From Bacteroidota bacterium (lineage in GTDB: Bacteria; Bacteroidota; Bacteroidia; Bacteroidales; JAADJA01), in contig JAHLKX010000008.1 in NCBI GenBank assembly GCA_020444515.1, positions 46,070-110,069 of the forward strand: a stretch of DNA of 64,000 nt. Direction: 5' to 3'. The notes beneath the pieces are model-generated. The model made no database searches. It saw only the letters and a program-made list of their open reading frames with translations, and had not been told where the DNA came from. Numbering within the stretch: position 1 is the stretch's first letter; each line of letters begins with the position of its first letter. Made by a program: the position numbers and the translations under genes. This document shows, one piece after another, positions 3,738 through 41,077 of the stretch.

Positions 3738-4499
3738 ATGATGAAATTGATTTTAAAACCACTTTTGGCCTGCTTGATTGCAACAGTCACATTAACCACT
3801 AACGCCCAGGAACTGACTGCCCTGGAAATCGTGAAAAAAGCTGATCAAAAAACCCGTGGTGAAACCAGCCAGGGGAGTATGACCATGAAGATTGTCAGAC
3901 CTGATTGGGATAGAACCGTAGAAATGAAATCATGGTCAAAAGGGGATGATTATTTTCTCATCTATATCACAGCCCCCGCAAAGGATAAAGGACAGGTATT
4001 TCTGAAAAGAGAGAAAGAAATGTGGAATTGGGTACCATCCATCGATCGAATGATCAAGATACCTCCTTCTATGATGATGCAATCGTGGATGGGAAGCGAC
4101 TTCACCAATGACGACCTGGTAAAGCAATCAAGTATTGTTAAAGATTACACGCATAAATTGCTTGGTGAAGAAATGATTCGGGGCGAAGAGTGCTATAAAA
4201 TAGAGCTTACACCATTGCCCGATGCACCTGTCGTATGGGGCAAAATAATATCATGGATCACCAAAGATGGTTTTAACAACTGGAAAAATGAATATTACGA
4301 CGAGGACATCGTCCTTATAAACATCGAGAATGCTTATGATTTGAAAGATTTCGGAGACCGCACACTACCCAGTCGCATTGAAATAGAGCCTGTGGATGAA
4401 CCCGGGAACAAAACGGTGCTGATCATGAGTGACATGCAATTCAACAAGCCCATTGATGATGGATTTTTCACACAACAAAACATGAAAAGGGTACGGTAA
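3738..4499 (+). CDS. Outer-membrane lipoprotein-sorting protein (LolA-like family)
   Basis: Signal peptide and the family signature 'SWMGSDFTNDDL'; precedes LolC/E-like permeases. Confidence 0.85.
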   Translation: MMKLILKPLLACLIATVTLTTNAQELTALEIVKKADQKTRGETSQGSMTMKIVRPDWDRTVEMKSWSKGDDYFLIYITAPAKDKGQVFLKREKEMWNWVPSIDRMIKIPPSMMMQSWMGSDFTNDDLVKQSSIVKDYTHKLLGEEMIRGEECYKIELTPLPDAPVVWGKIISWITKDGFNNWKNEYYDEDIVLINIENAYDLKDFGDRTLPSRIEIEPVDEPGNKTVLIMSDMQFNKPIDDGFFTQQNMKRVR

Positions 4500-4523
4500 A
4501 AAACTGCAAATTCAAACGAATCC

Positions 4524-5750
4524 ATGAAAACCTATTTCAAACTGGCATGGCGCAACCTCTGGCGAAATAAACGGCGATCATTGATTACCATTGCTTCCAT
4601 TTTTTTCGGCGTTTTCTTTGCTATATTCCTCTCATCCATTCAAAAGGGGTCTTTCGAAAACATCCTTGAAAATATGGTGAAGTTTTATTCTGGTTATATC
4701 CAAATTCAAGGTGAAAAATATAAGGACAACAAAAGCCTGAATCAAAGTTTTGAAGATAATGATCTGCTTAGAGGCAAAGTAGCAAGTGAAACCAATGTGA
4801 CCCATTTTGCCAGCCGGATCGAATCCTTTGCCCTTTCAGCCTTTAAAGATCAAACCTATGCTGCTGTTGTTTTAGGAATAGAACCAGCTCAGGAAAACCA
4901 GATTTCAGAAATTTCGAAATGGATCTCCCAGGGAACATATTTCACCAAAAGCAATGAGGTAAATGGTGTTCTGATTGGAAGTCAGTTGGCCGAAAATCTG
5001 GGTATCGGCGTGAATGATACGTTGGTACTGATTGGCCAGGGTTATCATGGACAAACAGCAGCAGGTAAATTTCCCGTCCTTGGACTTTTAAAATTCCCTT
5101 TACCCGATCTCAATAAACAAATGATTTATATGTCACTTGAATCGGCCAGAAATTTCTATTCGATGCCGGACAGGTCAACTTCAATGGTTTTGATGGTCGA
5201 TAATGTGGACAAAATAGATAAAACCATTGATCACCTTGAACAAGCCATAGATAAAAATTTAAAAGTCTATTCATGGAAAGAGATTCAACCCGAACTTGAA
5301 AATTTCATTCAGGGTAAACTGGCTGGGGGTAAAATCATGAAGGGAATCCTCTTTATGGTCATCGGGTTTGGTATTTGGGGAACCATCATTATGCTAATGG
5401 CAGAGCGGAAGCGGGAACTCGGGATCATAATAGCTCTTGGTGTTCGTAAAATAAGGGTGATGCGAATCATTGTTCTGGAATCATTTTTAATCGGATTTAT
5501 TGGTGTTGTCATTGGCTCCATAACTAGCCTTCCACTTGTTTCCTATCTTTATTTACACCCAGTTCATGTTAGCGGCAGTATCAAAGAAACATACGAATCC
5601 ATGGGGTTTGAACCGGTATTAAAATTCAGTATTCATCCTGATAATTTTATCAGTCCGGCAATAACCGTATTTATATTGTTTACGGCAATTACATTATATG
5701 CTGTATGGTATATTGCAAGATTAAAAACGGCTTCAGCACTTAGGGCATGA
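4524..5750 (+). CDS. ABC transporter permease 1 (LolC/E, MacB/FtsX family)
   Basis: 'AWRNLWRNKRRS' start, large periplasmic domain, 'ERKRELG...ALG' FtsX motif, 4 TM. Confidence 0.9.
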   Translation: MKTYFKLAWRNLWRNKRRSLITIASIFFGVFFAIFLSSIQKGSFENILENMVKFYSGYIQIQGEKYKDNKSLNQSFEDNDLLRGKVASETNVTHFASRIESFALSAFKDQTYAAVVLGIEPAQENQISEISKWISQGTYFTKSNEVNGVLIGSQLAENLGIGVNDTLVLIGQGYHGQTAAGKFPVLGLLKFPLPDLNKQMIYMSLESARNFYSMPDRSTSMVLMVDNVDKIDKTIDHLEQAIDKNLKVYSWKEIQPELENFIQGKLAGGKIMKGILFMVIGFGIWGTIIMLMAERKRELGIIIALGVRKIRVMRIIVLESFLIGFIGVVIGSITSLPLVSYLYLHPVHVSGSIKETYESMGFEPVLKFSIHPDNFISPAITVFILFTAITLYAVWYIARLKTASALRA

Positions 5751-5795: not shown

Positions 5796-7013
5796 ATGAA
5801 TGTTATTAAAATAGCCTGGAGAAACTTATGGAGAAATTCACGCCGAACCGCGATCACGATGGCATCTGTATTTTTTGGTGTTATCCTTTCCGTAGCTATG
5901 ACATCGATGCAGTATGGCTCTTATGATTCAATGATTGATAATGTCGTTAAGTTTTATTCAGGTTATGCACAGATTTTTGATCGTGCATATCATGAAAACA
6001 AAACCATCAACAACACGATGGAGCTCACTGACTCAATCAGAAAAACGGTTCAGCAAACAGAGGGGGTAACGCATATTGCCTCGAGGCTTGAATATTTTGC
6101 ACTGGCATCTTCTGATGAAATTACCAAAGGAGCCATGATCCTCGGAATTGACCCGATCCAGGAAAGTTATGTAACAGATGTAGCCAAATGGGTAGAAAAG
6201 GGACAATATCTCAAAGAAGGCGATGACGGAGTTTTGGTATCGGTCAACCTGGCCAATTATCTCAAAATAAATATAGGTGACACAATCGTATTATATGGCC
6301 AGGGATATCATGGTGTAACTGCTGCCGACCTTTTCCCGGTCAGGGGAATCCTTAAATTTCCTTTACCAGAACTGAACAACCAGATGATCTATATGGACAT
6401 TGGGACCTGTCAACGTTATTTTGGAGCCGAAAACAGAATCAGTTCACTGGTGATAATGGTCGATGACCACAATGACCTACCTGCTGTTATGCGATCATTA
6501 AAAGCAAGCATTAAAGATCCATTAACTGTTATGTCATGGGACGAACTTCAACCCGAACTTGTCCAGATGATAGATGCCGACCGTGCAGGAGGTGTTTTCA
6601 CCAAAATAATCTTATACATGGTAGTGGCCTTTGGTATATTTGGTACGATTATCATGATGATATCTGAAAGGATCAGAGAACTGGGTGTGACCATTGCCAT
6701 TGGCATGCAACGATTTAAAATGGCAGGTATTCTTTTTACAGAAACAGTCTTAACCGGTTTGCTGGGCGCTGCATCAGGAATTATTGGAAGTATTCCAATC
6801 GTGGTTTACTTTTACAATAATCCGATCAAACTCACGGGCGATGCGGCACAAACAATGATCGATATGGGAATGGAACCGTTGATGTATTTCAGCTTAAGTC
6901 CTTTTGTTTTTTACAACCAGGCCATCACTGTTTTCTTTATCACCGTTGTTATTGGTGTTTTCCCGGTTTATAAAGCTTTCAATCTGAAAATTAACCAGGC
7001 ATTGAAAGCATAA
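5796..7013 (+). CDS. ABC transporter permease 2 (LolC/E family), paralog of permease 1
   Basis: 'AWRNLWRNSRRT', 'GQGYHG.TAA..FPV.G.LKFPLP.LN', 'ERIRELG..IAIG'. Start refined to the ATG at 5796. Confidence 0.9.
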   Translation: MNVIKIAWRNLWRNSRRTAITMASVFFGVILSVAMTSMQYGSYDSMIDNVVKFYSGYAQIFDRAYHENKTINNTMELTDSIRKTVQQTEGVTHIASRLEYFALASSDEITKGAMILGIDPIQESYVTDVAKWVEKGQYLKEGDDGVLVSVNLANYLKINIGDTIVLYGQGYHGVTAADLFPVRGILKFPLPELNNQMIYMDIGTCQRYFGAENRISSLVIMVDDHNDLPAVMRSLKASIKDPLTVMSWDELQPELVQMIDADRAGGVFTKIILYMVVAFGIFGTIIMMISERIRELGVTIAIGMQRFKMAGILFTETVLTGLLGAASGIIGSIPIVVYFYNNPIKLTGDAAQTMIDMGMEPLMYFSLSPFVFYNQAITVFFITVVIGVFPVYKAFNLKINQALKA

Positions 7014-23447: not shown

Positions 23448-24971
<1,524 letters not shown>

Positions 24972-25156
24972 AGAGCATCTACTTATGATCCTGATATTCA
25001 ATATTAGGATTGATATTTGCTACAAGCTTTTACTTCTTTTTTATATATTATCCCAAACGAGTACAAGTGAGGGCTCTTCCTTGGAGTTGATGGTTTATCC
25101 ATAATCTCTTAAAAGAGCTTCGGGCATGAAGGGAAGAACCTATCAACACGGAATTT

Positions 25157-25230
25157 AGTCCCGTAGCTCAGTTGGTTAGAGCACTACACTGATAATGTAG
25201 GGGTCCGCAGTTCAAGTCTGCGCGGGACTA
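25157..25230 (+). tRNA. tRNA-Ile (GAT)
   Basis: AGTCCCG...CGGGACT acceptor stem, CTGATAA anticodon loop, GTTCAAGT T-loop; in the ITS. Confidence 0.97.
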
Positions 25231-25240
25231 CTAGCTCTTT

Positions 25241-25314
25241 GGGGAATTAGCTCAGCTGGCTAGAGCACCTGCCTTGCACGCAGGGGGTCATCGGTTCGAA
25301 TCCGATATTCTCCA
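25241..25314 (+). tRNA. tRNA-Ala (TGC)
   Basis: GGGGAAT...ATTCTCC acceptor with G3:U70, TTGCA anticodon loop, GTTCGAATC T-loop. Confidence 0.97.
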
Positions 25315-25416
25315 CAAACTCTCACTGTTTTAAGAGAGGTCCTTTACGGGATAAGTTCTTTGACATATTGAAAGAAAATACAGCGAAATATTTAAGAATC
25401 ACAATAAGATATAACA

Positions 25417-28327
<2,911 letters not shown>

Positions 28328-28435
28328 TGTCATGCTTTTTTTGATTCTTATCTGGATTTCTGTATTTTCTTTCATATATATGTCATTTAAGGTATTGATT
28401 CACCTTTGTCATTGACTTCGGTGAACGAAAGATTT

Positions 28436-28546
<111 letters not shown>

Positions 28547-31022: not shown

Positions 31023-31051
31023 AAAAAACCTCCACCTGAATCAGGCAGAGG
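31023..31051 (-). terminator. Rho-independent terminator of the TonB-dependent receptor operon
   Basis: Minus strand CCTCTGCCTG-ATT-CAGGTGGAGG-TTTTTT, about 34 bp after the stop at 31085. Confidence 0.75.
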
Positions 31052-31084
31052 CACAACGGTCGCGGAGTCCTTCCTTGAAGTGGT

Positions 31085-31927
31085 TTAGTGTATTCTCAAA
31101 ATTTTATGGGATTTAATGGCTATATTTTGATCATTAACAATGCGCACAAGATAGACACCTAAGGGGATATTGTGAAGATCCAAACAACACTTGCGGTTTG
31201 GGATCGATTTCCGGATCCAAACCTTTCCTGCAAGATCTACCACCTGAACTTGATTGATTTCTGTTTCTGAATCAATGTATAAAAATCTGTTTGTTGGATT
31301 GGGTCCCATTTTAATTTTCAATTCTTTAAGGTTACTTATGGCACTGATCTTTGTTCCCCGAACATAAATTTCATCAATTTTGGATTTACCAGATTCAACG
31401 ACAGGACCACCTGTTCCCGAAGCTTCATTGGAAGTCATCAACCACCGGATCGAAAGATTCGCCTGATCATCACAATTATTGGGTAAAACCAGGTTATCCA
31501 CAAAACTTGTTTCCCAATCATTTTCAACGGTGATTCCTCCGTTTTCAACATCTGTCCATGAAGTACCTTCATCAGTGCTGAATTGTAATTTAAAATCTTT
31601 GGGACCAGGATCATTTCCTCCGGACTGCTGCCGTGAGCTTATGGTAATATTCGCAAATCCTGTTGTATTACAATTGATCATCCATCCTTTTGTATCCATA
31701 CCATTCTCCCAACTACTTGCCTGGGCAGCTTTTGTTGTATATCCATTTTTCAATTCAATGGCCGAGGTACCCCCAAAAGAGACCAATTCCTGGGTTAAGT
31801 TTAAAGACAGACCCGTATCGGCCAGCAGTTCATTTCCTGGGAATGTCCATCCCACGATCATTTCATCTTGCGTAAATGCAAATGAAAACAGGTTGATCAA
31901 AATCAACATCAATGTAAATTTTTTCAT
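31085..31927 (-). CDS. Secreted beta-sandwich protein with T9SS type A CTD
   Basis: Signal peptide, jelly-roll-like core, CTD 'GPNPT...V.DL.GK...L..GVYLV.I...HKI'; overlaps the receptor stop by 4 bp (ATGA). Confidence 0.8.
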   Translation of the reverse strand: MKKFTLMLILINLFSFAFTQDEMIVGWTFPGNELLADTGLSLNLTQELVSFGGTSAIELKNGYTTKAAQASSWENGMDTKGWMINCNTTGFANITISSRQQSGGNDPGPKDFKLQFSTDEGTSWTDVENGGITVENDWETSFVDNLVLPNNCDDQANLSIRWLMTSNEASGTGGPVVESGKSKIDEIYVRGTKISAISNLKELKIKMGPNPTNRFLYIDSETEINQVQVVDLAGKVWIRKSIPNRKCCLDLHNIPLGVYLVRIVNDQNIAIKSHKILRIH

Positions 31928-34233
31928 ATTTTCTTATTTTTATGAATGGTGTATTTAATTTCGAACATAAGAAACCTACCAGGTGAAAGATAACCTTTTC
32001 GATCAATAAACTGCTCATCGAGTAGGTCCTGTATGTCCAGACTAATGTGCAGATGTTGCAAAAACAGTTTCGATATTTTTAGGTTTACCAATGAATAACT
32101 TTCAATGACCTCCGTATTTTCTTCGTCATACCATTGTTCATCGGTAAAGGTGTAATTGATTTGAAAATTAAAAAAAGGGTTTTGCCATGTGAAACCGGTG
32201 TATAACAAATTTTCAGGTACTTCATTTAAAACTTTTCCTTCAAGATCAGTTGAACCTGGTGAGGTGTATTCCAAAATCTCAGACTGGTTATAAGTATAAC
32301 TTACATCCCATCGAAGGTTTTTGTTAATTCTGTAGTTGACACCCAATTCAGCGCCCGAGACTTCAACCCTGGATACATTTTGACGTTGATATACTGGAAC
32401 GGGATCCTCCGACCCATTATCAATAAAATCGCCTGTTGCAACGAGATACTGAAAATCATGACCCCGTGAATAAAACAGTGAGGGTTTTAGATCAAACTTT
32501 TTCCCAATTGACCCGTCCAAACCCCATTCAAAGCTGGTAATTGATTCGGGAATCAGTTTTGGATTGGCAATTTTAAATCCCCTTCTGATTTTGCGTGAAC
32601 CAGCCAGGTCATCAAGTTTGGGGGGCATAAAACCGGTAGATGCATTCAAATAGATGCGAAATGTCTTGGAAATCCAATAATTTAAACCCAGTTTAGGGCT
32701 AATTTGGTACCATGAATTCTCATCAAAGGATTCATTTAGATCTCCTTGAAATCCTGTTTTGTTTGTGGGATTATTAACTTTAAGAAGACCGTTATAAAAC
32801 TTGGCATAATCAAGACGGATTCCTGCCACAATATTAATTCTATCCTTCCATATTTTGATCTCATCCTGAACAAATAATGCTGAAAAGATTGTATTTCCGC
32901 GTGTTGCGATCTCATCAGTTGAGGTCCGATAGATCTCGGAATTGTCCAGATTACCATTTTTCAAATCAATCCCCGCCGAAAAAAGGTTATTTTTTATGAC
33001 CTGTCCGGAAAAAGTGATCCAAAGCCCCAGATCATTCTTATTTGTCTCAGTATCTACCAGTTTATATTCGGAAGAAGTATTCAGATTTTCGTTCTGGCGA
33101 TAATAGTATTCATTAAAATAAAAGGCCTTTGCGTTGAACTTCAACATGCCGGCCATGCCCTCATAAGCGAGTCTTATATTGTTGTTTGTAAAACCCTCAT
33201 AGCTACCATCTGGTTCATAAACTTTTACACCCGAACCACGTTTATCCTTATAAAACCTGTAATCCAATTCAATCCGAGCATTGTTTGAAAACCTGTATCC
33301 TGCCAATCCATTAAAGTTTCCTTCATAAAGAAATGCATTCACATTGACCGAATCCTTAATCTCACCCGGTTCAAGGATATAACCGTCTCCATGCCTGTAG
33401 AAGCTTCCCAATTTCCAAAAAAACCCCTTGGATTTTTTATAATGATTTTTGCTAAAATTTAACTGGGACTGAAATGTATGGTAGGTTCCATAACTTAAAC
33501 CAGCAAAACCCTGTAAATTTTCCTCAGGTTGTTTCGTAATGATATTGATAACTCCCCCCATGGCATTGTTACCATACAAAGTGCTACCAGGACCTTTAAC
33601 AACCTCTATTCTTTCTATTTCTTCAGGGGTAACCAGGTGCCAGCTCACCGTTCCCCCGGCAGTTTTATTCAGCGGAACACCATCCAGTAAGATAAGGCTT
33701 CGGGCACTTCCGGGCATCCCTCTCATGGTTACACTTGCATTCCTGGAAAAAATACCCCAACTGCGATTCACATTGATACCGGGCACCATACGTAATAGGT
33801 CATCGGTGTTTGTTGCGGGAAAACCTAAAATGGTTTTTTCATCAATGATATTTATACTTTGCGGAAGGTCTTCAGCAGATTGATGGGTTCTGGTAGCCGT
33901 TATTACAATCGAAGCAAATTCTAATGAATCTCGTTCCATGAATATTTCAAGGAGATTATTTTTTAAGGGATATACTGTAAAAGTTGTATCGCGATAGCCT
34001 ATATAACTTACAATGAAAGTAACCGGAGATTCCACATTCTTTATTCCGAAATAACCGGATTGATCCGTTGACATAACACTGTGTAATTCAGGAATCCTGA
34101 TGTGGGCACCTGATAAGGGTTCATGGCTTCTACAATCCATTACCCTTCCATGGATTTCGTTTTGCGCAAAGATATTTTGTGCGATTATCAAAAGTGGCAG
34201 AATGACCAGATATTTTAGATAATGTACGGTCAA
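31924..34233 (-). CDS. TonB-dependent receptor (BtuB/CirA-like, non-SusC) with an N-terminal extension domain
   Basis: Signal peptide, CarboxypepD-like extension, 'IVITATRT', plug 'LRMVPGI...RG...LILLDGVP...IERIEVVKGPGSTLYG.NAMGGVINIIT', C-terminal 'PGRF...I.Y'. TTG start overlaps the upstream stop. Confidence 0.93.
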   Translation of the reverse strand: MTVHYLKYLVILPLLIIAQNIFAQNEIHGRVMDCRSHEPLSGAHIRIPELHSVMSTDQSGYFGIKNVESPVTFIVSYIGYRDTTFTVYPLKNNLLEIFMERDSLEFASIVITATRTHQSAEDLPQSINIIDEKTILGFPATNTDDLLRMVPGINVNRSWGIFSRNASVTMRGMPGSARSLILLDGVPLNKTAGGTVSWHLVTPEEIERIEVVKGPGSTLYGNNAMGGVINIITKQPEENLQGFAGLSYGTYHTFQSQLNFSKNHYKKSKGFFWKLGSFYRHGDGYILEPGEIKDSVNVNAFLYEGNFNGLAGYRFSNNARIELDYRFYKDKRGSGVKVYEPDGSYEGFTNNNIRLAYEGMAGMLKFNAKAFYFNEYYYRQNENLNTSSEYKLVDTETNKNDLGLWITFSGQVIKNNLFSAGIDLKNGNLDNSEIYRTSTDEIATRGNTIFSALFVQDEIKIWKDRINIVAGIRLDYAKFYNGLLKVNNPTNKTGFQGDLNESFDENSWYQISPKLGLNYWISKTFRIYLNASTGFMPPKLDDLAGSRKIRRGFKIANPKLIPESITSFEWGLDGSIGKKFDLKPSLFYSRGHDFQYLVATGDFIDNGSEDPVPVYQRQNVSRVEVSGAELGVNYRINKNLRWDVSYTYNQSEILEYTSPGSTDLEGKVLNEVPENLLYTGFTWQNPFFNFQINYTFTDEQWYDEENTEVIESYSLVNLKISKLFLQHLHISLDIQDLLDEQFIDRKGYLSPGRFLMFEIKYTIHKNKKI

Positions 34234-35171
34234 TGATTCGCCTCCTGTATTTTTATATCAAATTTGGCCATTCCATCCAGTGTCCCTGAGGCAGCACTGA
34301 TCCTGAACAATCCCAACCTGTTTTGTCGGTTTTTAAACACATATATATCTCCAACAGAAAGATTTTTGGCCTTTCGCTTTCCATCAGCATCAATATAAAG
34401 AGCGATCATCAGGCTGTCATTGACTGTCTGATTAAAGTCCTCCTGGGTTAAAGATGTTTTGATGTAACGGGTGGTATTGCGTATTTCCCAGTTAACAGGC
34501 GAAAAACTCTCATCAAAAATTCCTTCTTCAATATTGGCTCCGGGTGAAGCCATGGTAAGTGCATCTTCGCCATAATAAAAAATAAGATCAATGAAGGCCT
34601 GATTTTCCATAGCCTGTGGCCCATCATAAACAATGTTATCATCGATGGTATAAAAACCATCAAACATTGTATTTTCCTGTGCACCCAAAACGATTCCGGC
34701 AATATTGGTCAAAGGTTGATAGGAACTATTTGTATCAGTTGTGAAATGAAATACACTGCTATTCCCCTGCCCTACCCGGTCTCGTAAAGTGAAAATCCAA
34801 TTTTCAATCTCCGCAGCAGATTTGTAAAAACTTCCTGTCCAAATGAATTCGGAAGCAAATATGGCTGAATCGAATAATCGATAAGAGGAACCGGCAACCG
34901 GATCCCGTACCTCAATGTAAAAATTGGTAATCTTTTCTGATCCCTGCCTGGCATGAACTTTAAACTTCATCAAACTGCCAGCGGGTATCGATGCGGATCC
35001 ACCAATAAAACCCGAATCCTGGATTAATTCAAAAGTGGGTGGATCTCCTTTTTCAAATTCTTTGCGACAACTCATAACAAACAAGATAAGGACCATTAAC
35101 AACAGAATTCGATATGCCCCAGAAAACATATCGAAAAATATCATAAATATCTTGTTCTTTGGTATCATCAT
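34230..35171 (-). CDS. Putative surface lipoprotein
   Basis: Lipobox LFVMS-C followed by a charged 'RKEFEK' stretch; C-terminal domain 'IDLIFYYG..ASPG..W..RNTT..L.VGDIYVFK...LGLFRI'. The start may be the Met at 35129. Confidence 0.75.
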   Translation of the reverse strand: MMIPKNKIFMIFFDMFSGAYRILLLMVLILFVMSCRKEFEKGDPPTFELIQDSGFIGGSASIPAGSLMKFKVHARQGSEKITNFYIEVRDPVAGSSYRLFDSAIFASEFIWTGSFYKSAAEIENWIFTLRDRVGQGNSSVFHFTTDTNSSYQPLTNIAGIVLGAQENTMFDGFYTIDDNIVYDGPQAMENQAFIDLIFYYGEDALTMASPGANIEEGIFDESFSPVNWEIRNTTRYIKTSLTQEDFNQTVNDSLMIALYIDADGKRKAKNLSVGDIYVFKNRQNRLGLFRISAASGTLDGMAKFDIKIQEANH

Positions 35172-35177
35172 CTGATG

Positions 35178-35774
35178 CTATTTCCGATTGATCTTTTTTA
35201 TAATGGAATGGGTAAATCCTGAACCTAAATATCCGCCGGTCATCCCAAAAACGAAGAACCCAACCATAGGGATGAGATAACCATGTTTTGCAAAAGAACC
35301 GTAGGGAAAACCTGTTAAAAAGTGAATGAGCAACCGGCTGAGTGGTATTGCAGCATAAGCGGTACCGGCAATGATAGCCGAAAACAACAAATGGTATCTT
35401 GATCTCCAGCTGGAACCGAATAGTATATCGATTATAAATCCGGGAAACATATAGTTGATCCCCATAAAAGGATCATTGAAGCCAAAAACCGGAAATAATA
35501 AAATAAACCCGATGCCCAATGAAGATATGGTCGATGCCCACCTGATATTTGAAGCCGTTCTGCCTGCCATCAGCAGGGCCATAAATTCGAGGCCGTGATG
35601 TCCAGGAATATTCAATGGAGTGCGCAAACGAGCATGCAAAACCATGGCAATGATTCCAATTCCAAACAGTATTATGTATTCAAGAGCCACTGGTACCGAT
35701 CCGCTAAGAGATGGAGCGGATATACTCTTTTCCGATTGTTTTCCATTCATTGTCTTTGTCATTTGATTTTTCAA
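35178..35774 (-). CDS. Small polytopic membrane protein, ECF S-component-like
   Basis: About 190 aa, 5-6 TM helices, 'PLNIPGHHGL' loop. The start may be 35750. The ECF-S assignment is inference from size and topology. Confidence 0.55.
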   Translation of the reverse strand: MKNQMTKTMNGKQSEKSISAPSLSGSVPVALEYIILFGIGIIAMVLHARLRTPLNIPGHHGLEFMALLMAGRTASNIRWASTISSLGIGFILLFPVFGFNDPFMGINYMFPGFIIDILFGSSWRSRYHLLFSAIIAGTAYAAIPLSRLLIHFLTGFPYGSFAKHGYLIPMVGFFVFGMTGGYLGSGFTHSIIKKINRK

Positions 35775-36444
35775 CCAGCAATACAGCTTGTTGTTCAGTT
35801 AAAACTGGGCGCGTCCAACCATCGCAATGAACCAGATTGTATTCTGACACCCGAGTTCCTTCTTTCGTCGAAACCTGATCAATCCCTGCGCTTTTTAACA
35901 ATTCTCCAACGGAATAAATTCCCGCATCAAAATCCCGCAATTCCCTGCTTCCCTTCAGCCAGATGAATCTGCCGTCATTACCACCTCTTCTGAGTCCGAC
36001 TGCAGCCAGTGCACCGATTTGTCCTATCCTCTTTCCGGTAAAACCCTGTAGAAAGAAATTCCATTTTGAAGCCAAAGCTTGGGCACCTTTTAAAGTTAGT
36101 ACTTCTTTTTTCGCTCTTTTACCCCAATTTATAATGTCCGCCGTGATATGATCCCAACGTATGATGCACAAACCCGCATCTGACCCTTCGGAAGCTTCCC
36201 GCATTAGAAATTCCGTACAGAATTTTATCATTTCTACAGTATGCTCTGTTTCAACATCGAGACAGGCCGAACTATTCTGAGAGGTATAAGCAATGTCCGG
36301 ATGGACATATAACTGATGACGGGTAATGCCTTTTAAAATCCCAAAATCTTTTTCCAGGATCAAATGAGCCAATTGGCGGGCCTTAAAGCCAGTACCCCGT
36401 GATTCCTTATTATCCGTGTCATCCATTCCGATAAGCAGGCGCAT
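35704..36444 (-). CDS. Stand-alone TiaS N-terminal (TCKD)-like domain protein
   Basis: 'LIGMDDTD...RGTG', 'RHQL.VHPDIAYTSQNSSAC', 'SDAGLC', 'G.IGALAAVG' parallel TiaS/Mmp11 kinase-domain motifs; no OB or Zn-ribbon domains. Start refined to the ATG at 36444. Confidence 0.78.
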   Translation of the reverse strand: MRLLIGMDDTDNKESRGTGFKARQLAHLILEKDFGILKGITRHQLYVHPDIAYTSQNSSACLDVETEHTVEMIKFCTEFLMREASEGSDAGLCIIRWDHITADIINWGKRAKKEVLTLKGAQALASKWNFFLQGFTGKRIGQIGALAAVGLRRGGNDGRFIWLKGSRELRDFDAGIYSVGELLKSAGIDQVSTKEGTRVSEYNLVHCDGWTRPVLTEQQAVLLVEKSNDKDNEWKTIGKEYIRSIS

Positions 36445-36462
36445 GCAACTCCGATTTGGGAA

Positions 36463-36557
36463 CAAATGTATCAGAATTTTTGAATAGAAGGATTCTAAAT
36501 TTAATAAAGATTATAGCTATACAAAATGTATAAACATCCCTAAATTCACTATATTTG
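36463..36557. promoter_or_regulatory. Divergent -7 promoter elements for the TiaS-like operon (-) and atoE (+)
   Basis: TACATTTG on the minus strand (36463-36470) and TATATTTG on the plus strand (36550-36557). Confidence 0.65.
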
Positions 36558-36609
36558 AACTTCGCAGGCAGTGGTATCCTGTGATCAAATTTTAGCATCC
36601 TATAACAAC

Positions 36610-37998
36610 ATGAAGAAATTTTTTCCTTCTACTTTCACCATCGCAGTGTTTCTGACATTTGTTACGTTCATCCTTGCACTGATATTTACGGCTCCCGTGG
36701 AAATCGAATCATCAGCATCAAGTGTTTATCATGAGATGGGCTCAGATCCGCTAATCCAATCTGGCAACCACCTAAGTCAGTTGATTGGTTTCTGGTACAA
36801 CGGTCTTTGGAATACCGGAATGCTCGCTTTTATGGTTCAAATGATGCTTATCCTGGTCCTGGGTTATGTGCTGGCTTCAACCGAGATTTTTAAAAAAATC
36901 ATTGAACAGGTCCTGATTTATTGCACTTCCACCGCAAAAGCAGCCTTTCTTGTCACTTTGTTGACCTTATTGGTCAGTTTTTTTAACTGGGGATTGGGAC
37001 TGATATTCGGGGCATTATTTGCCCGGAAGGTAGCTGAACGTGCCAAAGAGCGACATTTTGCATTAAATTATCCGCTTATTGGTGCAGCAGGTTATTCAGG
37101 GCTTATGGTATGGCATGGAGGCATTTCAGGATCGGCACCTCTGAAAGTTGCTGAACCCGGTCACCTCAAATCCCTCACCGGACTTGATCTTGCTCCTGTT
37201 GATTTCAGCCAGACCATCTTTTCCGGAATGAATATCGTTGTCTTTATCACCTTGATCGTTATACTCCCAATTGCTATGTTTTGGCTCGGTAAGAGCGTAT
37301 CGAAAGAGAATATTGAAATTCAAGAAACAGAAACAGAAACAGATCAAAAAGCAGAGGCTAAAGAAGAATTCACTGGTGCTGAAAGATTTGACAAATTGGT
37401 TTGGGCAGGAAGAATTCTGGGAATAATATTTTTACTGATTGCCGGTTACAAGGCAATCAGTATGCAAAGCCTGGCCGTGATCGATCCGAATTACCTGAAC
37501 TTTGTATTACTCGGGTTGGGGCTTCTTTTCAGCGGAAGCATTTATAATTTTCTCAAGCAGGTACAAAATGCCATGGGAGCAGCGGCGGGTATTCTCATTC
37601 AATTCCCGCTCTACTTCGGAATTATGGGCATTATGAGATACAGCGGTCTTGTAGAAGTTTTTTCAAATTTTCTGATGAACATCTCAAACTCAACCACTTT
37701 CCCATTATTCACTTTTTTAAGTGCGGCAATCGTGAATGTATTTGTTCCCAGCGGTGGTGGTCAATGGGCAGTACAGGGACCTATCATCATTGAAGCAGCT
37801 CAAAACCTGGGAATACCTTTAGGCAAGGCAGTTATGGCACTGGCCTATGGTGATCAGGTAACCAATATGTTGCAACCATTCTGGGCTCTACCGCTGCTGG
37901 GGATCACAGGCTTGAAAGCAAAAGATATAATTTCTTATACTTTATTTTTGATGATGATCGGTATTATAATATTTATTGCCGGACTGTTAATTTTTTAG
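36610..37998 (+). CDS. atoE: Short-chain fatty acid transporter (AtoE family)
   Basis: 'F..QM.LILV.GY.LA', 'NWGLGLI', 'WHGGISGSAPL', 'QFPLYFGIMG', 'VPSGGGQWAVQGP', 'TNMLQPFWALP'. Start refined to 36610. Confidence 0.9.
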   Translation: MKKFFPSTFTIAVFLTFVTFILALIFTAPVEIESSASSVYHEMGSDPLIQSGNHLSQLIGFWYNGLWNTGMLAFMVQMMLILVLGYVLASTEIFKKIIEQVLIYCTSTAKAAFLVTLLTLLVSFFNWGLGLIFGALFARKVAERAKERHFALNYPLIGAAGYSGLMVWHGGISGSAPLKVAEPGHLKSLTGLDLAPVDFSQTIFSGMNIVVFITLIVILPIAMFWLGKSVSKENIEIQETETETDQKAEAKEEFTGAERFDKLVWAGRILGIIFLLIAGYKAISMQSLAVIDPNYLNFVLLGLGLLFSGSIYNFLKQVQNAMGAAAGILIQFPLYFGIMGIMRYSGLVEVFSNFLMNISNSTTFPLFTFLSAAIVNVFVPSGGGQWAVQGPIIIEAAQNLGIPLGKAVMALAYGDQVTNMLQPFWALPLLGITGLKAKDIISYTLFLMMIGIIIFIAGLLIF

Positions 37999-39548
37999 TC
38001 ATCAAAGGCATCAAACTTAATTCCCTGCGCCAAAGGCAATTCCGTACTGAAGTTTATGGTATTCGTCTGCCTGCGCATATAAGCTTTCCAGGCATCTGAA
38101 CCCGATTCACGTCCACCACCGGTATCCTTTTCACCACCAAAAGCTCCTCCTATTTCTGCACCATTGGTTGCTATGTTCACGTTGGCTATTCCACAATCGG
38201 ATCCTTCATGAGAAAGGAACCGTTCTGTTTCATGAATATTTTTCGAAAAGATGGCAGAAGAAAGACCCTGAGGCACGCCATTGTGCATTTCAATGGCCTC
38301 TTCGATGGTTTTATATTTCATCAAATAAAGGATGGGGGCAAAAGTTTCTTCCTGAACAATATGATAATGATTTTCGGCTTCAGCAATACAGGGAACAACA
38401 TACGTGCCCGATTCATAACCTTTCCCCTCAAGAACCTGCCCTCCATAAACTACTTTACCTCCTTCTTTTACAACTTGCTCCTGTGCATACTTAAATGCCT
38501 CAACAGCAGTTTTATCAACCAGTGGTCCCATTACGTAATTTTCATCCAGCGGATGTCCGATCTTCACTTGTTTATAGGCAGCAATTAATTTCTCCTTAAA
38601 AAGATCGTACATACATTCATGGATGAATAACCGCCGCGTTGAGGTGCATCGTTGGCCGGCTGTAGCGACAGCTCCGAATAAACTGGCCCGCAAGGCCATA
38701 TTTCGGTTGCCATATTGTGAAACAATGATGGCATTGTTACCACCCAGTTCAAGGATGGTTTTTCCCAGCCGCTCTCCAACAAGTCGAGCTACTCTTTTAC
38801 CTACAGCAACCGAACCTGTCACCGAAATCAAAGGAACACGCCTGTCTTTTAAAAAATCATCCCCGACGTATTTTGAACTGGCAACCACCAGATTGATCAC
38901 CCCTTCTGGAATCTGATTCCGAACCAATACATCTTTCATGATATGATGCACAGCCACAGCACAAAGTGGTGTTTTCGATGAGGGCTTCCAAATGACTACA
39001 TCACCTGCAATCAAAGCGATCATGGTATTCCAGGCCCATACGGCTACCGGGAAATTGAAGGAAGTGATAACACCTACCACACCCAGGGGATGGTATTGAT
39101 CATACATTCGATGCATTTCCCGTTCGGAATGCATGGTAGACCCATAAAGCTGCCTCGATTGACCAACAGCAAAGTCAGCAATATCAATCATTTCCTGAAC
39201 TTCACCCAGGCCCTCCTGGTAAACTTTACCCATTTCATAGGACACCAGTTTACCCAGGGGTTCTTTATATTTACGAAGCTCATCACCCATCTGCCGCACA
39301 ATTTCACCCCGTTTGGGTGCCGGTACCATTCGCCAGTATTTAAATGCTTCCTGCGCTCTGGTCATCACCTTTTCATAATCTTCCCAACCCGCTTGTTTGA
39401 CACTTCCTATTAACTGACCATCGGCAGGTGAAAAAGATTGAAGCTCTTCACCTTTTGTTTCAATCCATTCGGCTCCGGTAGATGCACCATTATTCACTTT
39501 TTGCAATCCTAATTCCTTCAGCATTTCGCTAATCCCAAATTTTTCCAT
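37995..39548 (-). CDS. Aldehyde dehydrogenase, ALDH7/antiquitin type (piperideine-6-carboxylate / alpha-aminoadipate semialdehyde dehydrogenase-like)
   Basis: 'PAPKRGEIVRQ', 'GEVQEMIDI.DFAVG.SRQLYG', 'ELGGNNA', 'AGQRCT', 'GAEIGGAFGGEK.TGGGRESGSDAWK.YMRR'. Confidence 0.93.
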   Translation of the reverse strand: MEKFGISEMLKELGLQKVNNGASTGAEWIETKGEELQSFSPADGQLIGSVKQAGWEDYEKVMTRAQEAFKYWRMVPAPKRGEIVRQMGDELRKYKEPLGKLVSYEMGKVYQEGLGEVQEMIDIADFAVGQSRQLYGSTMHSEREMHRMYDQYHPLGVVGVITSFNFPVAVWAWNTMIALIAGDVVIWKPSSKTPLCAVAVHHIMKDVLVRNQIPEGVINLVVASSKYVGDDFLKDRRVPLISVTGSVAVGKRVARLVGERLGKTILELGGNNAIIVSQYGNRNMALRASLFGAVATAGQRCTSTRRLFIHECMYDLFKEKLIAAYKQVKIGHPLDENYVMGPLVDKTAVEAFKYAQEQVVKEGGKVVYGGQVLEGKGYESGTYVVPCIAEAENHYHIVQEETFAPILYLMKYKTIEEAIEMHNGVPQGLSSAIFSKNIHETERFLSHEGSDCGIANVNIATNGAEIGGAFGGEKDTGGGRESGSDAWKAYMRRQTNTINFSTELPLAQGIKFDAFDD

Positions 39549-40696: not shown

Positions 40697-41077
40697 TTAT
40701 ACCTCGAAGGTATTTCTAAACTCCTCAAAGGCCTCTTCCATGTAGCTATCCATTTTTTCATGGAATTCGTCAAAGGCCTCAACCAGCTTTTTACCCTCGG
40801 GAGTAAGGGTAGATTTTCCTCCGTCTTTACCACCACGCTCCTTTTCAAGGATGGCAAATCCCAGCATTTCTTCAATTTTTTTAAGATCACCCCAGGTTCT
40901 CCTATACGTAATATTCAGTGCTTGAGTAGCGGCTTTCAACGAGCCATGTTTTTCGATGGCTTTTAATATTTGCCATTTACCATCGCCAAGAATACCTTGA
41001 TCATCAGCTGTCGAAAGCCAGATCTTGTAATTAAAACGAACATGACTGGGGAATGTAATTCGTTCCATAAATACCAT
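40697..41077 (-). CDS. ModE-family winged-HTH regulator (DNA-binding domain only)
   Basis: 'G.GK.QIL.AIE.HGSL.AA...L.I.YRR.W..L...E...G...L...RGG..GG.S.LT..G..L'; no TOBE/molbindin domain. Confidence 0.85.
   Translation of the reverse strand: MVFMERITFPSHVRFNYKIWLSTADDQGILGDGKWQILKAIEKHGSLKAATQALNITYRRTWGDLKKIEEMLGFAILEKERGGKDGGKSTLTPEGKKLVEAFDEFHEKMDSYMEEAFEEFRNTFEV

Follow-up and report, generated by a model that had tools for sequence, protein, structure and literature searches.

What is imported by an operon that encodes a TonB-dependent receptor (TBDR) together with a stand-alone relative of the TiaS kinase domain, TCKD? This question is raised by five consecutive open reading frames (ORFs), g1 to g5, on the minus strand of a 64,000-nucleotide stretch of DNA, hereafter the window, from a Bacteroidota bacterium of the order Bacteroidales (assembly GCA_020444515.1, contig JAHLKX010000008.1, positions 46,070 to 110,069). 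An initial annotation of the window had read these genes as an import-and-modify operon for a scavenged heterocyclic cofactor or nucleoside. The same-strand architecture of five genes was borne out when the ORFs of the window were checked. As to the cargo, we instead think, with moderate confidence, that the operon serves to acquire tungsten in a TonB-dependent manner and that the metal species, once imported, is processed or trapped by the TCKD-like enzyme; molybdenum is possibly handled as well.

g1 is predicted to adopt the TiaS kinase-domain fold

g1 (positions 35704-36444, minus strand) encodes a protein of 246 aa; an alternative upstream TTG at 36465 is likewise open. In profile searches the protein matched the NCBIfam models of methanogenesis marker 11 (Mmp11, TIGR03280; E 3.6e-11, 42.7 bits, below the cut-off of 255.8) and of the TiaS equivalog (NF040849; E 1.2e-5, 24.1 bits, below the cut-off of 600). 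A phmmer search of the PDB detected TiaS chains with an E-value of about 1e-4 over residues 1-151. The window protein had no Pfam match at E <= 0.1 and did not reach the gathering score of PF22641 (TiaS_TCKD), which was exceeded by a Chloroflexota homologue of g1 (27.9 bits, cut-off 27).

An AlphaFold (AF2) model of g1, built on 40 diverse homologues, had a predicted local distance difference test (pLDDT) score of 94.9. The model matched TiaS 5xob in Foldseek (E 7e-11) and TiaS 3amt_A in VIA (Z 23.6, root-mean-square deviation (rmsd) 1.8, 157 residues aligned, 24% identity). The next unrelated row in VIA had a Z of 7.5, and pterin pyrophosphokinases (HPPK) scored about 7, which is the noise level of ferredoxin-like folds. 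Both the sequence and the Foldseek alignments to TiaS ended near residue 155, beyond which the last 90 aa or so are modelled as a beta-rich C-terminal domain. Further, g1 is shorter than TiaS (246 compared with about 420 aa), and its sequence contains no CxxC pairs. Judging from the model, g1 is a stand-alone TiaS TCKD fold without the tRNA-binding OB and Zn-ribbon domains, in agreement with both the fold and the domain loss proposed initially.

Among the 40 homologues, D8, T10, H43, N57, G144 and A147 were invariant, and D11, R42-H43-Q44, T54 and GxIGALAxxGLR were also kept. Residue 18, which we take to be the one autophosphorylated by TiaS, was Thr in 37 homologues and Ser in three. The kinase motifs quoted in the initial annotation were thus all found in g1 and conserved in its relatives. 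g1 shares with TiaS (PDB 3amt, 4rvz and 5xob) the fold, GxDDTD, Thr18, R..P.I.YT and GxIGALAA; it differs from TiaS in having another C-terminal domain, in being bacterial and in being encoded with importers and tungsten/molybdenum (W/Mo) genes. The similarity to Mmp11 covers g1 residues 2-152, which align with profile positions 134-283 in the C-terminal half of Mmp11 only; the N-terminal half of Mmp11 is missing from g1. We found no paper on the function of Mmp11 in the full text of the openly accessible literature. By analogy with TiaS, g1 may catalyse an O-phosphorylation or an adenylylation-type activation. In the available text of one study, the TiaS TCKD is described as a kinase domain that acts on both RNA and protein (PMC11938285).

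Two g1-like proteins were fusions. In P0264 (826 aa), the g1-like domain was joined to a DAO FAD-oxidoreductase and a BFD-like [2Fe-2S] domain (Fer2_BFD), which reflects either a real fusion or a gene-calling artefact. The N-terminus of P0242 was of no recognised kind, and neither fusion gave a usable hint.

Predicted S-component fold of g2 and putative surface components encoded by g3 to g5

g2 (35178-35774, minus strand) encodes a membrane protein of about 190 aa, whose true start is likely the ATG at 35750 ('MNGK...'), going by orthologues. The window protein had no Pfam or NCBIfam match, and a PDB profile search gave no hits. PF09819 was touched by one of the 37 aligned members of the family, from Chloroflexota (E 5.8e-5, 23.7 bits, below the cut-off of 25.2). 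The AF2 model of g2 had a pLDDT of 89.4. When this model was compared with 48,161 chains in VIA, the 15 best rows were all S-components of energy-coupling factor (ECF) transporters, with 5edl_A at the top (Z 14.6, rmsd 3.2, 164 residues aligned); these Z-values are to be read against the high background that helical bundles carry. BtuM scored Z 8.2, and Foldseek E-values were weak (0.05 and above). On this model g2 has the six-helix ECF S-component fold, as had been predicted for the product of 35178-35774.

The six-helix fold is common to g2 and the described S-components (5edl, ThiT, BioY, RibU and BtuM), from which g2 differs in belonging to no S-component Pfam family and in its PG[HKR]xG motif. 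Further, unlike the vitamin S-components, g2 occurs in a W/Mo context and its gene overlaps that of a TCKD-fold protein. In the alignment of the family (A2), position 59 was H, K or R and position 147 was R or K in all 37 members; these conserved basic positions may suit an anionic ligand.

g3 (34230-35171, minus strand) encodes a putative surface lipoprotein of 313 aa with a lipobox-like 'FVMSC', as read from the sequence. It had no Pfam or NCBIfam match, and its Atlas neighbours were only uncharacterised Bacteroidota proteins. Its proposed role is that of an outer-membrane binder acting together with the receptor g4. g4 (31924-34233, minus strand) encodes a TBDR of 769 aa, with Plug (PF07715, 1.8e-27), barrel (PF00593, 1.1e-33) and N-terminal CarbopepD_reg_2 (CarboxypepD_reg-like, 9.8e-13) domains. 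Its best NCBIfam match was TonB-hemin (TIGR01785; E 8e-61, 206.3 bits, below the cut-off of 316.85). g5 (31085-31927, minus strand) encodes a secreted or surface protein of 280 aa with a type-A C-terminal sorting domain of the type IX secretion system (T9SS), which scored above the cut-offs of both Por_Secre_tail (PF18962; E 7.9e-9, 36.1 bits, cut-off 27) and TIGR04183 (34.3 bits, cut-off 23). These family matches agree with the first description of g4 as a TBDR and of g5 as T9SS cargo.

Conservation of the operon and its neighbours in Bacteroidales

Of 401 Bacteroidales genomes, 60 carried g1, from 47 of 236 genera; a phylum-wide sample gave no match in its 400 other genomes. For 40 of the 59 matches outside the window's genome, about 20 kb of surrounding sequence was taken, and the 19 that lay on short contigs or at the ends of contigs were set aside; the window and these 40 loci make up the 41 Bacteroidales loci compared here. 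The strict same-strand order g1-g2-g3-g4 was kept in 34 of the 41, and this synteny far exceeds chance. The exceptions were a triplicated g3 (L072), a receptor gene 5 kb upstream (L055 and L066), a contig end inside g2 (L070), g1 followed by MoeA-MoaA-MoaC (L044) and g1 alone beside an aldehyde dehydrogenase (L062 and L063). Taken singly, g2 adjoined g1 in 37 loci, g3 (often duplicated) and g4 were each found in 37, and g5 was found in 17. EcfA and EcfT were absent from the window operon and from the 40 other loci. In these Bacteroidales loci g2 is encoded as a solitary component, like BtuM and some BioY proteins.

Genes for molybdenum and tungsten recurred beside the operon. MoeA-MoaA-MoaC followed it in eight of the 41 loci, and WtpA (292 bits, above the TIGR03730 cut-off) was encoded in six, either between g1 and a gene for a ModE-N-like protein or downstream. 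This ModE-like protein of 125 aa (cluster c4) was encoded in 25 loci, in 14 of them directly 5' of g1 on the same strand. Its counterpart in the window is a winged-helix protein of 126 aa (40697-41077, minus strand), which scored 74 bits with TIGR00637 ModE_repress (E 7.1e-21, cut-off 98.5 bits) and is a probable regulator associated with the system. In 12 of the 41 loci, including L035-L037, L049, L050, L053 and L069, the ModE-like gene was adjoined by a gene for a 93-aa pyrimidine/purine nucleoside phosphorylase (Ppnp).

The same association was observed at the level of genomes. MoeA_N was detected in 55 of the 60 genomes with g1 and in 135 of the 341 without it, and AFOR_N, the N-domain of the tungsten-type aldehyde:ferredoxin oxidoreductase (AOR), in 57 and 105, respectively. 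Of the three genomes of genus g188, two carried g1, and MoeA and AOR were found in those same two.

The window's own genome (94.7% complete) carries g1 in a single copy, one MoeA, two AFOR_N proteins and a MoaB/MogA-type domain. Genome searches detected neither ModA nor WtpA nor TupA (0 modA, 0 PF13531). The single protein of PF12849, to which TupA presumably belongs, is PstS, adjoining PstC. Besides MoeA, the genome has three MoCF_biosynth matches, one of them in a 320-aa ORF 2.4 kb from MoeA; g1 is therefore not needed as a missing molybdopterin (MPT) adenylyltransferase, and this candidate function was set aside.

Importers encoded with distant relatives of g1

We searched metagenome contigs with a distant clade of g1 (A3), whose members match g1 at E 1e-33 to 1e-43. 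The search gave 561 relatives, of which 80 were kept, and 43 loci of at least 5 kb were analysed. In a first arrangement (16-17 loci), g1 was encoded with a FecCD permease, an ABC ATPase and a Peripla_BP_2 binding protein, often after SLH-domain surface proteins. In a second (12 loci), its partners were a fused EcfAA', EcfT and an S-component that resembled g2 (E 1e-13 to 1e-28 with the A2 profile), and ExbB, ExbD, TonB and TBDR genes were found near this arrangement. In one locus, L139, g1 was instead accompanied by Porin_O_P and a TupA-like ABC system. Further, L003, from a Chloroflexota metagenome-assembled genome, carried on one strand a Tup-like ABC system, a homologue of MoSto-beta, g1, a fused EcfAA', EcfT, a 168-aa ORF and a g2 homologue, so that an EcfAA'/EcfT module lies beside g2 homologues in L003 as well as in the 12 metagenome loci. 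Across phyla, genes for stand-alone TCKD proteins are thus found together with those for PGHxG membrane proteins and for TBDR or ABC importers, a pattern that the initial annotation had suggested looking for. g1 accompanies four kinds of importer, and therefore the simplest reading is that it acts on the cargo after import and is not part of one transporter.

This linkage bears on the idea that g1 is a bacterial TiaS-type kinase that modifies RNA, for example tRNA, or protein, and that stands beside transporters by coincidence. TiaS is the sole characterised relative of g1, and position 18 is kept as Thr or Ser, both of which fit such a role. However, g1 lacks the OB and Zn-ribbon domains with which TiaS binds tRNA, it is patchily distributed within the order and absent from the rest of the phylum-wide sample, the window's own genome has a TilS-type PP-loop gene, and the importer linkage extends over four types of transporter and two or more phyla. 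We consider a TiaS-type modifier highly improbable.

The neighbours in the distant clade again included W/Mo genes. A MoSto-beta homologue (AA_kinase family; E 2e-71 and 3e-79) stood beside g1 in L097, L103, L106 and L140, as in L003. The binding protein of the FecCD-type arrangement matched MolA (HI_1472) of H. influenzae (E 4.8e-24), with two uncharacterised binding proteins ranking higher; its best NCBIfam match was the haem protein IsdE (E 1.4e-11), and the permease resembled BtuC, FecCD and FhuB. In L003 (5531-6982), an Oxidored_molyb (molybdopterin-binding) domain was fused to the TupA-like binding protein of the Tup-like ABC system, and small proteins with partial Oxidored_molyb matches were encoded by the first gene after a riboswitch in L119 (3905-4381) and L135 (4374-4901). 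The Oxidored_molyb matches were weak (E 5e-10 to 6e-8), and a sequence search found no PDB relative.

The MoSto-like genes are single-gene homologues of the Azotobacter molybdenum storage protein on anaerobe-type contigs. A conserved ORF of 80-95 aa (cluster c17) was found near them in L097 and L140, and separately in L139. L140 has two g1-like genes (3785-4528, minus strand, and 6109-6852, plus strand), which are divergent around an ABC ATPase gene, with the MoSto-like gene adjoining.

Moco/Tuco riboswitches in the distant clade

The 43 metagenome loci and L003 were scanned with Rfam. In 13 of these 44 loci we detected 17 aptamers of RF01055, the molybdenum or tungsten cofactor (Moco/Tuco) riboswitch. 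All but one shared the strand of the g1 match; the remaining aptamer, in L140, was on the other strand, 5' of the ABC ATPase gene and of neither g1-like gene. In seven loci the aptamer was at the head of the operon of FecCD, ABC ATPase, binding protein and g1, and in L106, L139 and L142 it was immediately 5' of g1. A second aptamer in L142 preceded EcfAA'-EcfT-S, and a tandem pair in L098 preceded TBDR-ExbB-ExbD. Beyond RF01055, the 44 loci gave a single regulatory-RNA match, a T-box that lies outside the operon of L109 on the opposite strand; no other riboswitch class was detected in the g1 operons.

Reading of the sequences by eye, together with alignments for three of them, indicated that the P3 hairpin was missing from all 17 aptamers. 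The g1 family is thus associated with Tuco-type riboswitches as well as with W/Mo genes. P3-less variants track tungsten-cofactor metabolism, according to the available text of Regulski et al. 2008 (PMC2408646), and the available text of a 2024 study of Eubacterium limosum treats the P3-less riboswitch as tungsten-dependent (PMC11725836). In that text, such riboswitches precede WOR1, tupABC, focA and two 'Fe ABC-type' operons, and FetABC1, one of the Tuco-controlled 'Fe ABC-type' systems, is up-regulated on tungsten limitation (PMC11725836). Four of our loci had two P3-less Moco-family aptamers each (L098, 4380-5031; L113, 813-1119; L139 and L142), a tandem arrangement that recalls the triple riboswitch reported for S. 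wolfei in the available text of PMC2408646.

The E. limosum authors take their Tuco-controlled FecCD-type systems to be for iron uptake (PMC11725836, available text), and the operons described here could be read in the same manner, that is, as importers of iron, haem or a siderophore that are co-regulated with tungsten enzymes because those are Fe-S-rich. The TonB-hemin match of g4, the IsdE match of the binding protein and the resemblance of the permease to BtuC, FecCD and FhuB accord with this explanation. However, no iron-related gene recurred in the 41 Bacteroidales or the 43 metagenome loci, and the neighbours that did recur are specific to W/Mo (the WtpA equivalog, MoSto, MoeA/MoaA/MoaC and the ModE-like protein). 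Further, the rise of FetABC1 on tungsten limitation speaks against iron uptake, g1 of L139 is encoded with a TupA-like rather than a FecCD-type system, and iron as the cargo would leave the window's own genome without any W/Mo importer. An iron, haem or siderophore importer is, in our judgement, improbable.

Cargo and proposed route

In the related loci, Moco/Tuco riboswitches were the only riboswitches found and the conserved neighbours were W/Mo genes. The cargo first proposed, a heterocyclic cofactor or nucleoside (for instance a cobamide, pterin or flavin), is therefore not supported. Cobalamin, thiamine and other vitamins were likewise rejected, since no riboswitch for them was detected in the window or in the 44 related loci. 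Under the tungsten reading, the species transported would most likely be the tungstate oxyanion. The T9SS-delivered g5 and the surface lipoprotein g3 would capture the metal species outside the cell, and g4 would carry it through the outer membrane in a TonB-dependent manner. g2, as a solitary ECF-S-type permease, would then move the cargo across the inner membrane. In the cytoplasm, g1 may spend ATP to trap, unload or activate the cargo for assembly of the W/Mo cofactor via MoeA.

Several observations weigh against tungsten as the cargo. The usual cargo of TBDRs and of transporters of the FecCD/Peripla_BP_2 and ECF-S types is an organic chelate or a vitamin and not an oxyanion, and the substrate of TiaS is a pyrimidine carbonyl, not a metal oxyanion. 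The nearest NCBIfam families of g4 are haem and B12 receptors, and no metal-binding site was identified in any of the five proteins. RF01055 was detected by Rfam neither in the window nor in the window's own genome; the riboswitch evidence comes wholly from a clade that is about 35-43% identical to the window g1 and none of it from Bacteroidales, and the published reading of the E. limosum systems is iron uptake. In the window, the ModE-like gene lies 4.2 kb upstream with three unrelated genes between, and 8-mer counts over the 41 loci gave only AT-rich words, with no operator shared upstream of g1 and the ModE-like genes. Fisher P values overstate the association of g1 with W/Mo genes because the genomes are related. 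Finally, among the 60 genomes with g1, three lack AFOR_N and five lack MoeA_N; the three are G750, which is 58% complete, and G655 and G757, which carry the orphan g1 of L062 and L063 and have neither MoeA nor AOR.

The main rival of the tungsten reading is pyranopterin salvage, in which molybdopterin, cyclic pyranopterin monophosphate (cPMP) or whole Moco/Tuco would be imported and g1 would re-phosphorylate or adenylylate it as a trap, by analogy with the kinases for vitamins that enter through Pnu or S-component carriers. This would rescue part of the earlier cofactor idea. Vitamin B12 is taken up by the same three transporter solutions, namely a TBDR with a surface lipoprotein, a FecCD/BtuCDF-type ABC transporter, and an ECF transporter or solitary S-component, and BtuM is among the fold matches of g2. 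Salvage is also consistent with riboswitches, which often govern importers of their own ligand or its precursors, with the Oxidored_molyb proteins that head riboswitch operons in L119 and L135 and are fused to the binding protein of L003, and with the kinase-type fold of g1, whose secondary matches to HPPK are at noise level.

However, the Oxidored_molyb matches are weak, as noted above. MoaA, MoaC and MoeA adjoin the operon in eight of the 41 loci and MoeA_N occurs in 55 of the 60 genomes with g1; de novo pterin synthesis is therefore present. Further, the recurrent neighbours are those expected of an oxyanion (WtpA, TupA-like binding proteins, Porin_O_P, MoSto-like proteins and the MolA-like binding protein), and the window's own genome has no other detectable W/Mo importer. 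We thus consider pyranopterin salvage unlikely. We give a similarly low chance to the more general proposal that the g1 family is an enzyme of an unseen step in W/Mo-cofactor metabolism, one form of which is a TCKD kinase that traps an imported pyranopterin.

Flanking signals and neighbouring genes

The initial annotation had placed one promoter and one terminator around the operon and had given all gene junctions as overlaps or gaps of 6 bp or less. The junctions are indeed overlaps or a short gap: g2 and g3 are separated by 6 bp, and g3/g4 and g4/g5 overlap by 4 bp each. The g1/g2 overlap is larger, at 47-71 bp according to the g2 start chosen. Both flanking elements are present and neither is statistically unusual alone. 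The TAnnTTTG motif, which we take to be the Bacteroidetes -7 element, occurs as TACATTTG at 36463-36470 (minus strand), 19 nt 5' of the g1 ATG. The window contains 91 copies of TAnnTTTG compared with 64 +/- 9 in shuffled sequences; a single copy is therefore statistically uninformative, and only its position, which is compatible with a promoter, supports TACATTTG. Within the block, the only second copy on the minus strand is at 34167-34174. A terminator-like hairpin with a T run (31028-31052, minus strand; 11 pairs, 6 GC) lies 3' of g5. Terminator-like sites in the region are not in excess (five compared with 5.6 in shuffled sequences).

A divergent gene (36571-37998, plus strand), whose product is a membrane protein of 475 aa that scored 367 bits with the TIGR00366 family, short of the cut-off, shares a 105-bp intergenic region with g1, and is next to g1 elsewhere only in the closest relative, L001. 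The window also contains, at 37995-39548 (minus strand), a gene for an aldehyde dehydrogenase that passes the cut-off of the L-piperidine-6-carboxylate dehydrogenase equivalog (779 bits). This gene recurs near g1 in 12 of the 41 loci and is directly beside the orphan g1 in L062 and L063, which reflects either lineage synteny or a second role of g1. A complete rRNA operon (16S, two tRNAs, 23S and 5S) at 23448-28545 (plus strand), just upstream of the region, accounts for the rise in GC content at 24-28 kb.

Comparison with known uptake systems and implications

MolBC-A of H. influenzae (HI1470-1472), a type-II ABC transporter of molybdate/tungstate, is the known system that resembles the FecCD-type g1 variants, which have the HI_1472-like binding protein. 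The window version differs from MolBC-A in using an S-component, and to our knowledge MolBC-A has no TCKD partner. The only prokaryotic Mo/W importers recognised in the available text of a 2026 survey are ModABC, WtpABC and TupABC (PMC13144720). These share the proposed cargo of the window operon, and WtpA or TupA-like genes lie beside the system in some loci. In contrast to them, and as judged by family matches, the window operon encodes neither a type-I ABC transporter nor a periplasmic protein that binds oxyanions, and it adds a TonB-dependent outer-membrane step, surface binders and a putative cytoplasmic ATP-using enzyme. The E. limosum fetABC1 and fetABC2 likewise have a P3-less riboswitch before an ABC importer labelled 'Fe ABC-type', and are presented as iron transporters in the available text (PMC11725836).

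In our search of the full-text literature, we found no stand-alone bacterial TCKD protein and no TonB-dependent or ECF-type uptake of tungsten. The initial statement that no characterised system has this architecture therefore stands within that literature.

Many anaerobes have tungsten enzymes without Mod, Wtp or Tup, and in the window's own genome, too, none of the three was detected. If pyranopterin salvage were true, the operon would be the first route of Moco/Tuco cofactor salvage in prokaryotes, and the homology would hint that Mmp11 serves the W/Mo cofactor of formylmethanofuran dehydrogenase. If the tungsten reading is true, the operon would add TonB-dependent uptake of scarce tungsten, by way of surface capture and an S-component, and g1 would represent the first cellular role for a bacterial TiaS-type kinase fold, as well as a lead for methanogenesis marker 11. 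Further, tungsten may be what is imported by the FecCD-type systems under Tuco-riboswitch control, among them the ones described in print as iron transporters, and the fate of tungstate between the membrane and MoeA would become experimentally accessible.

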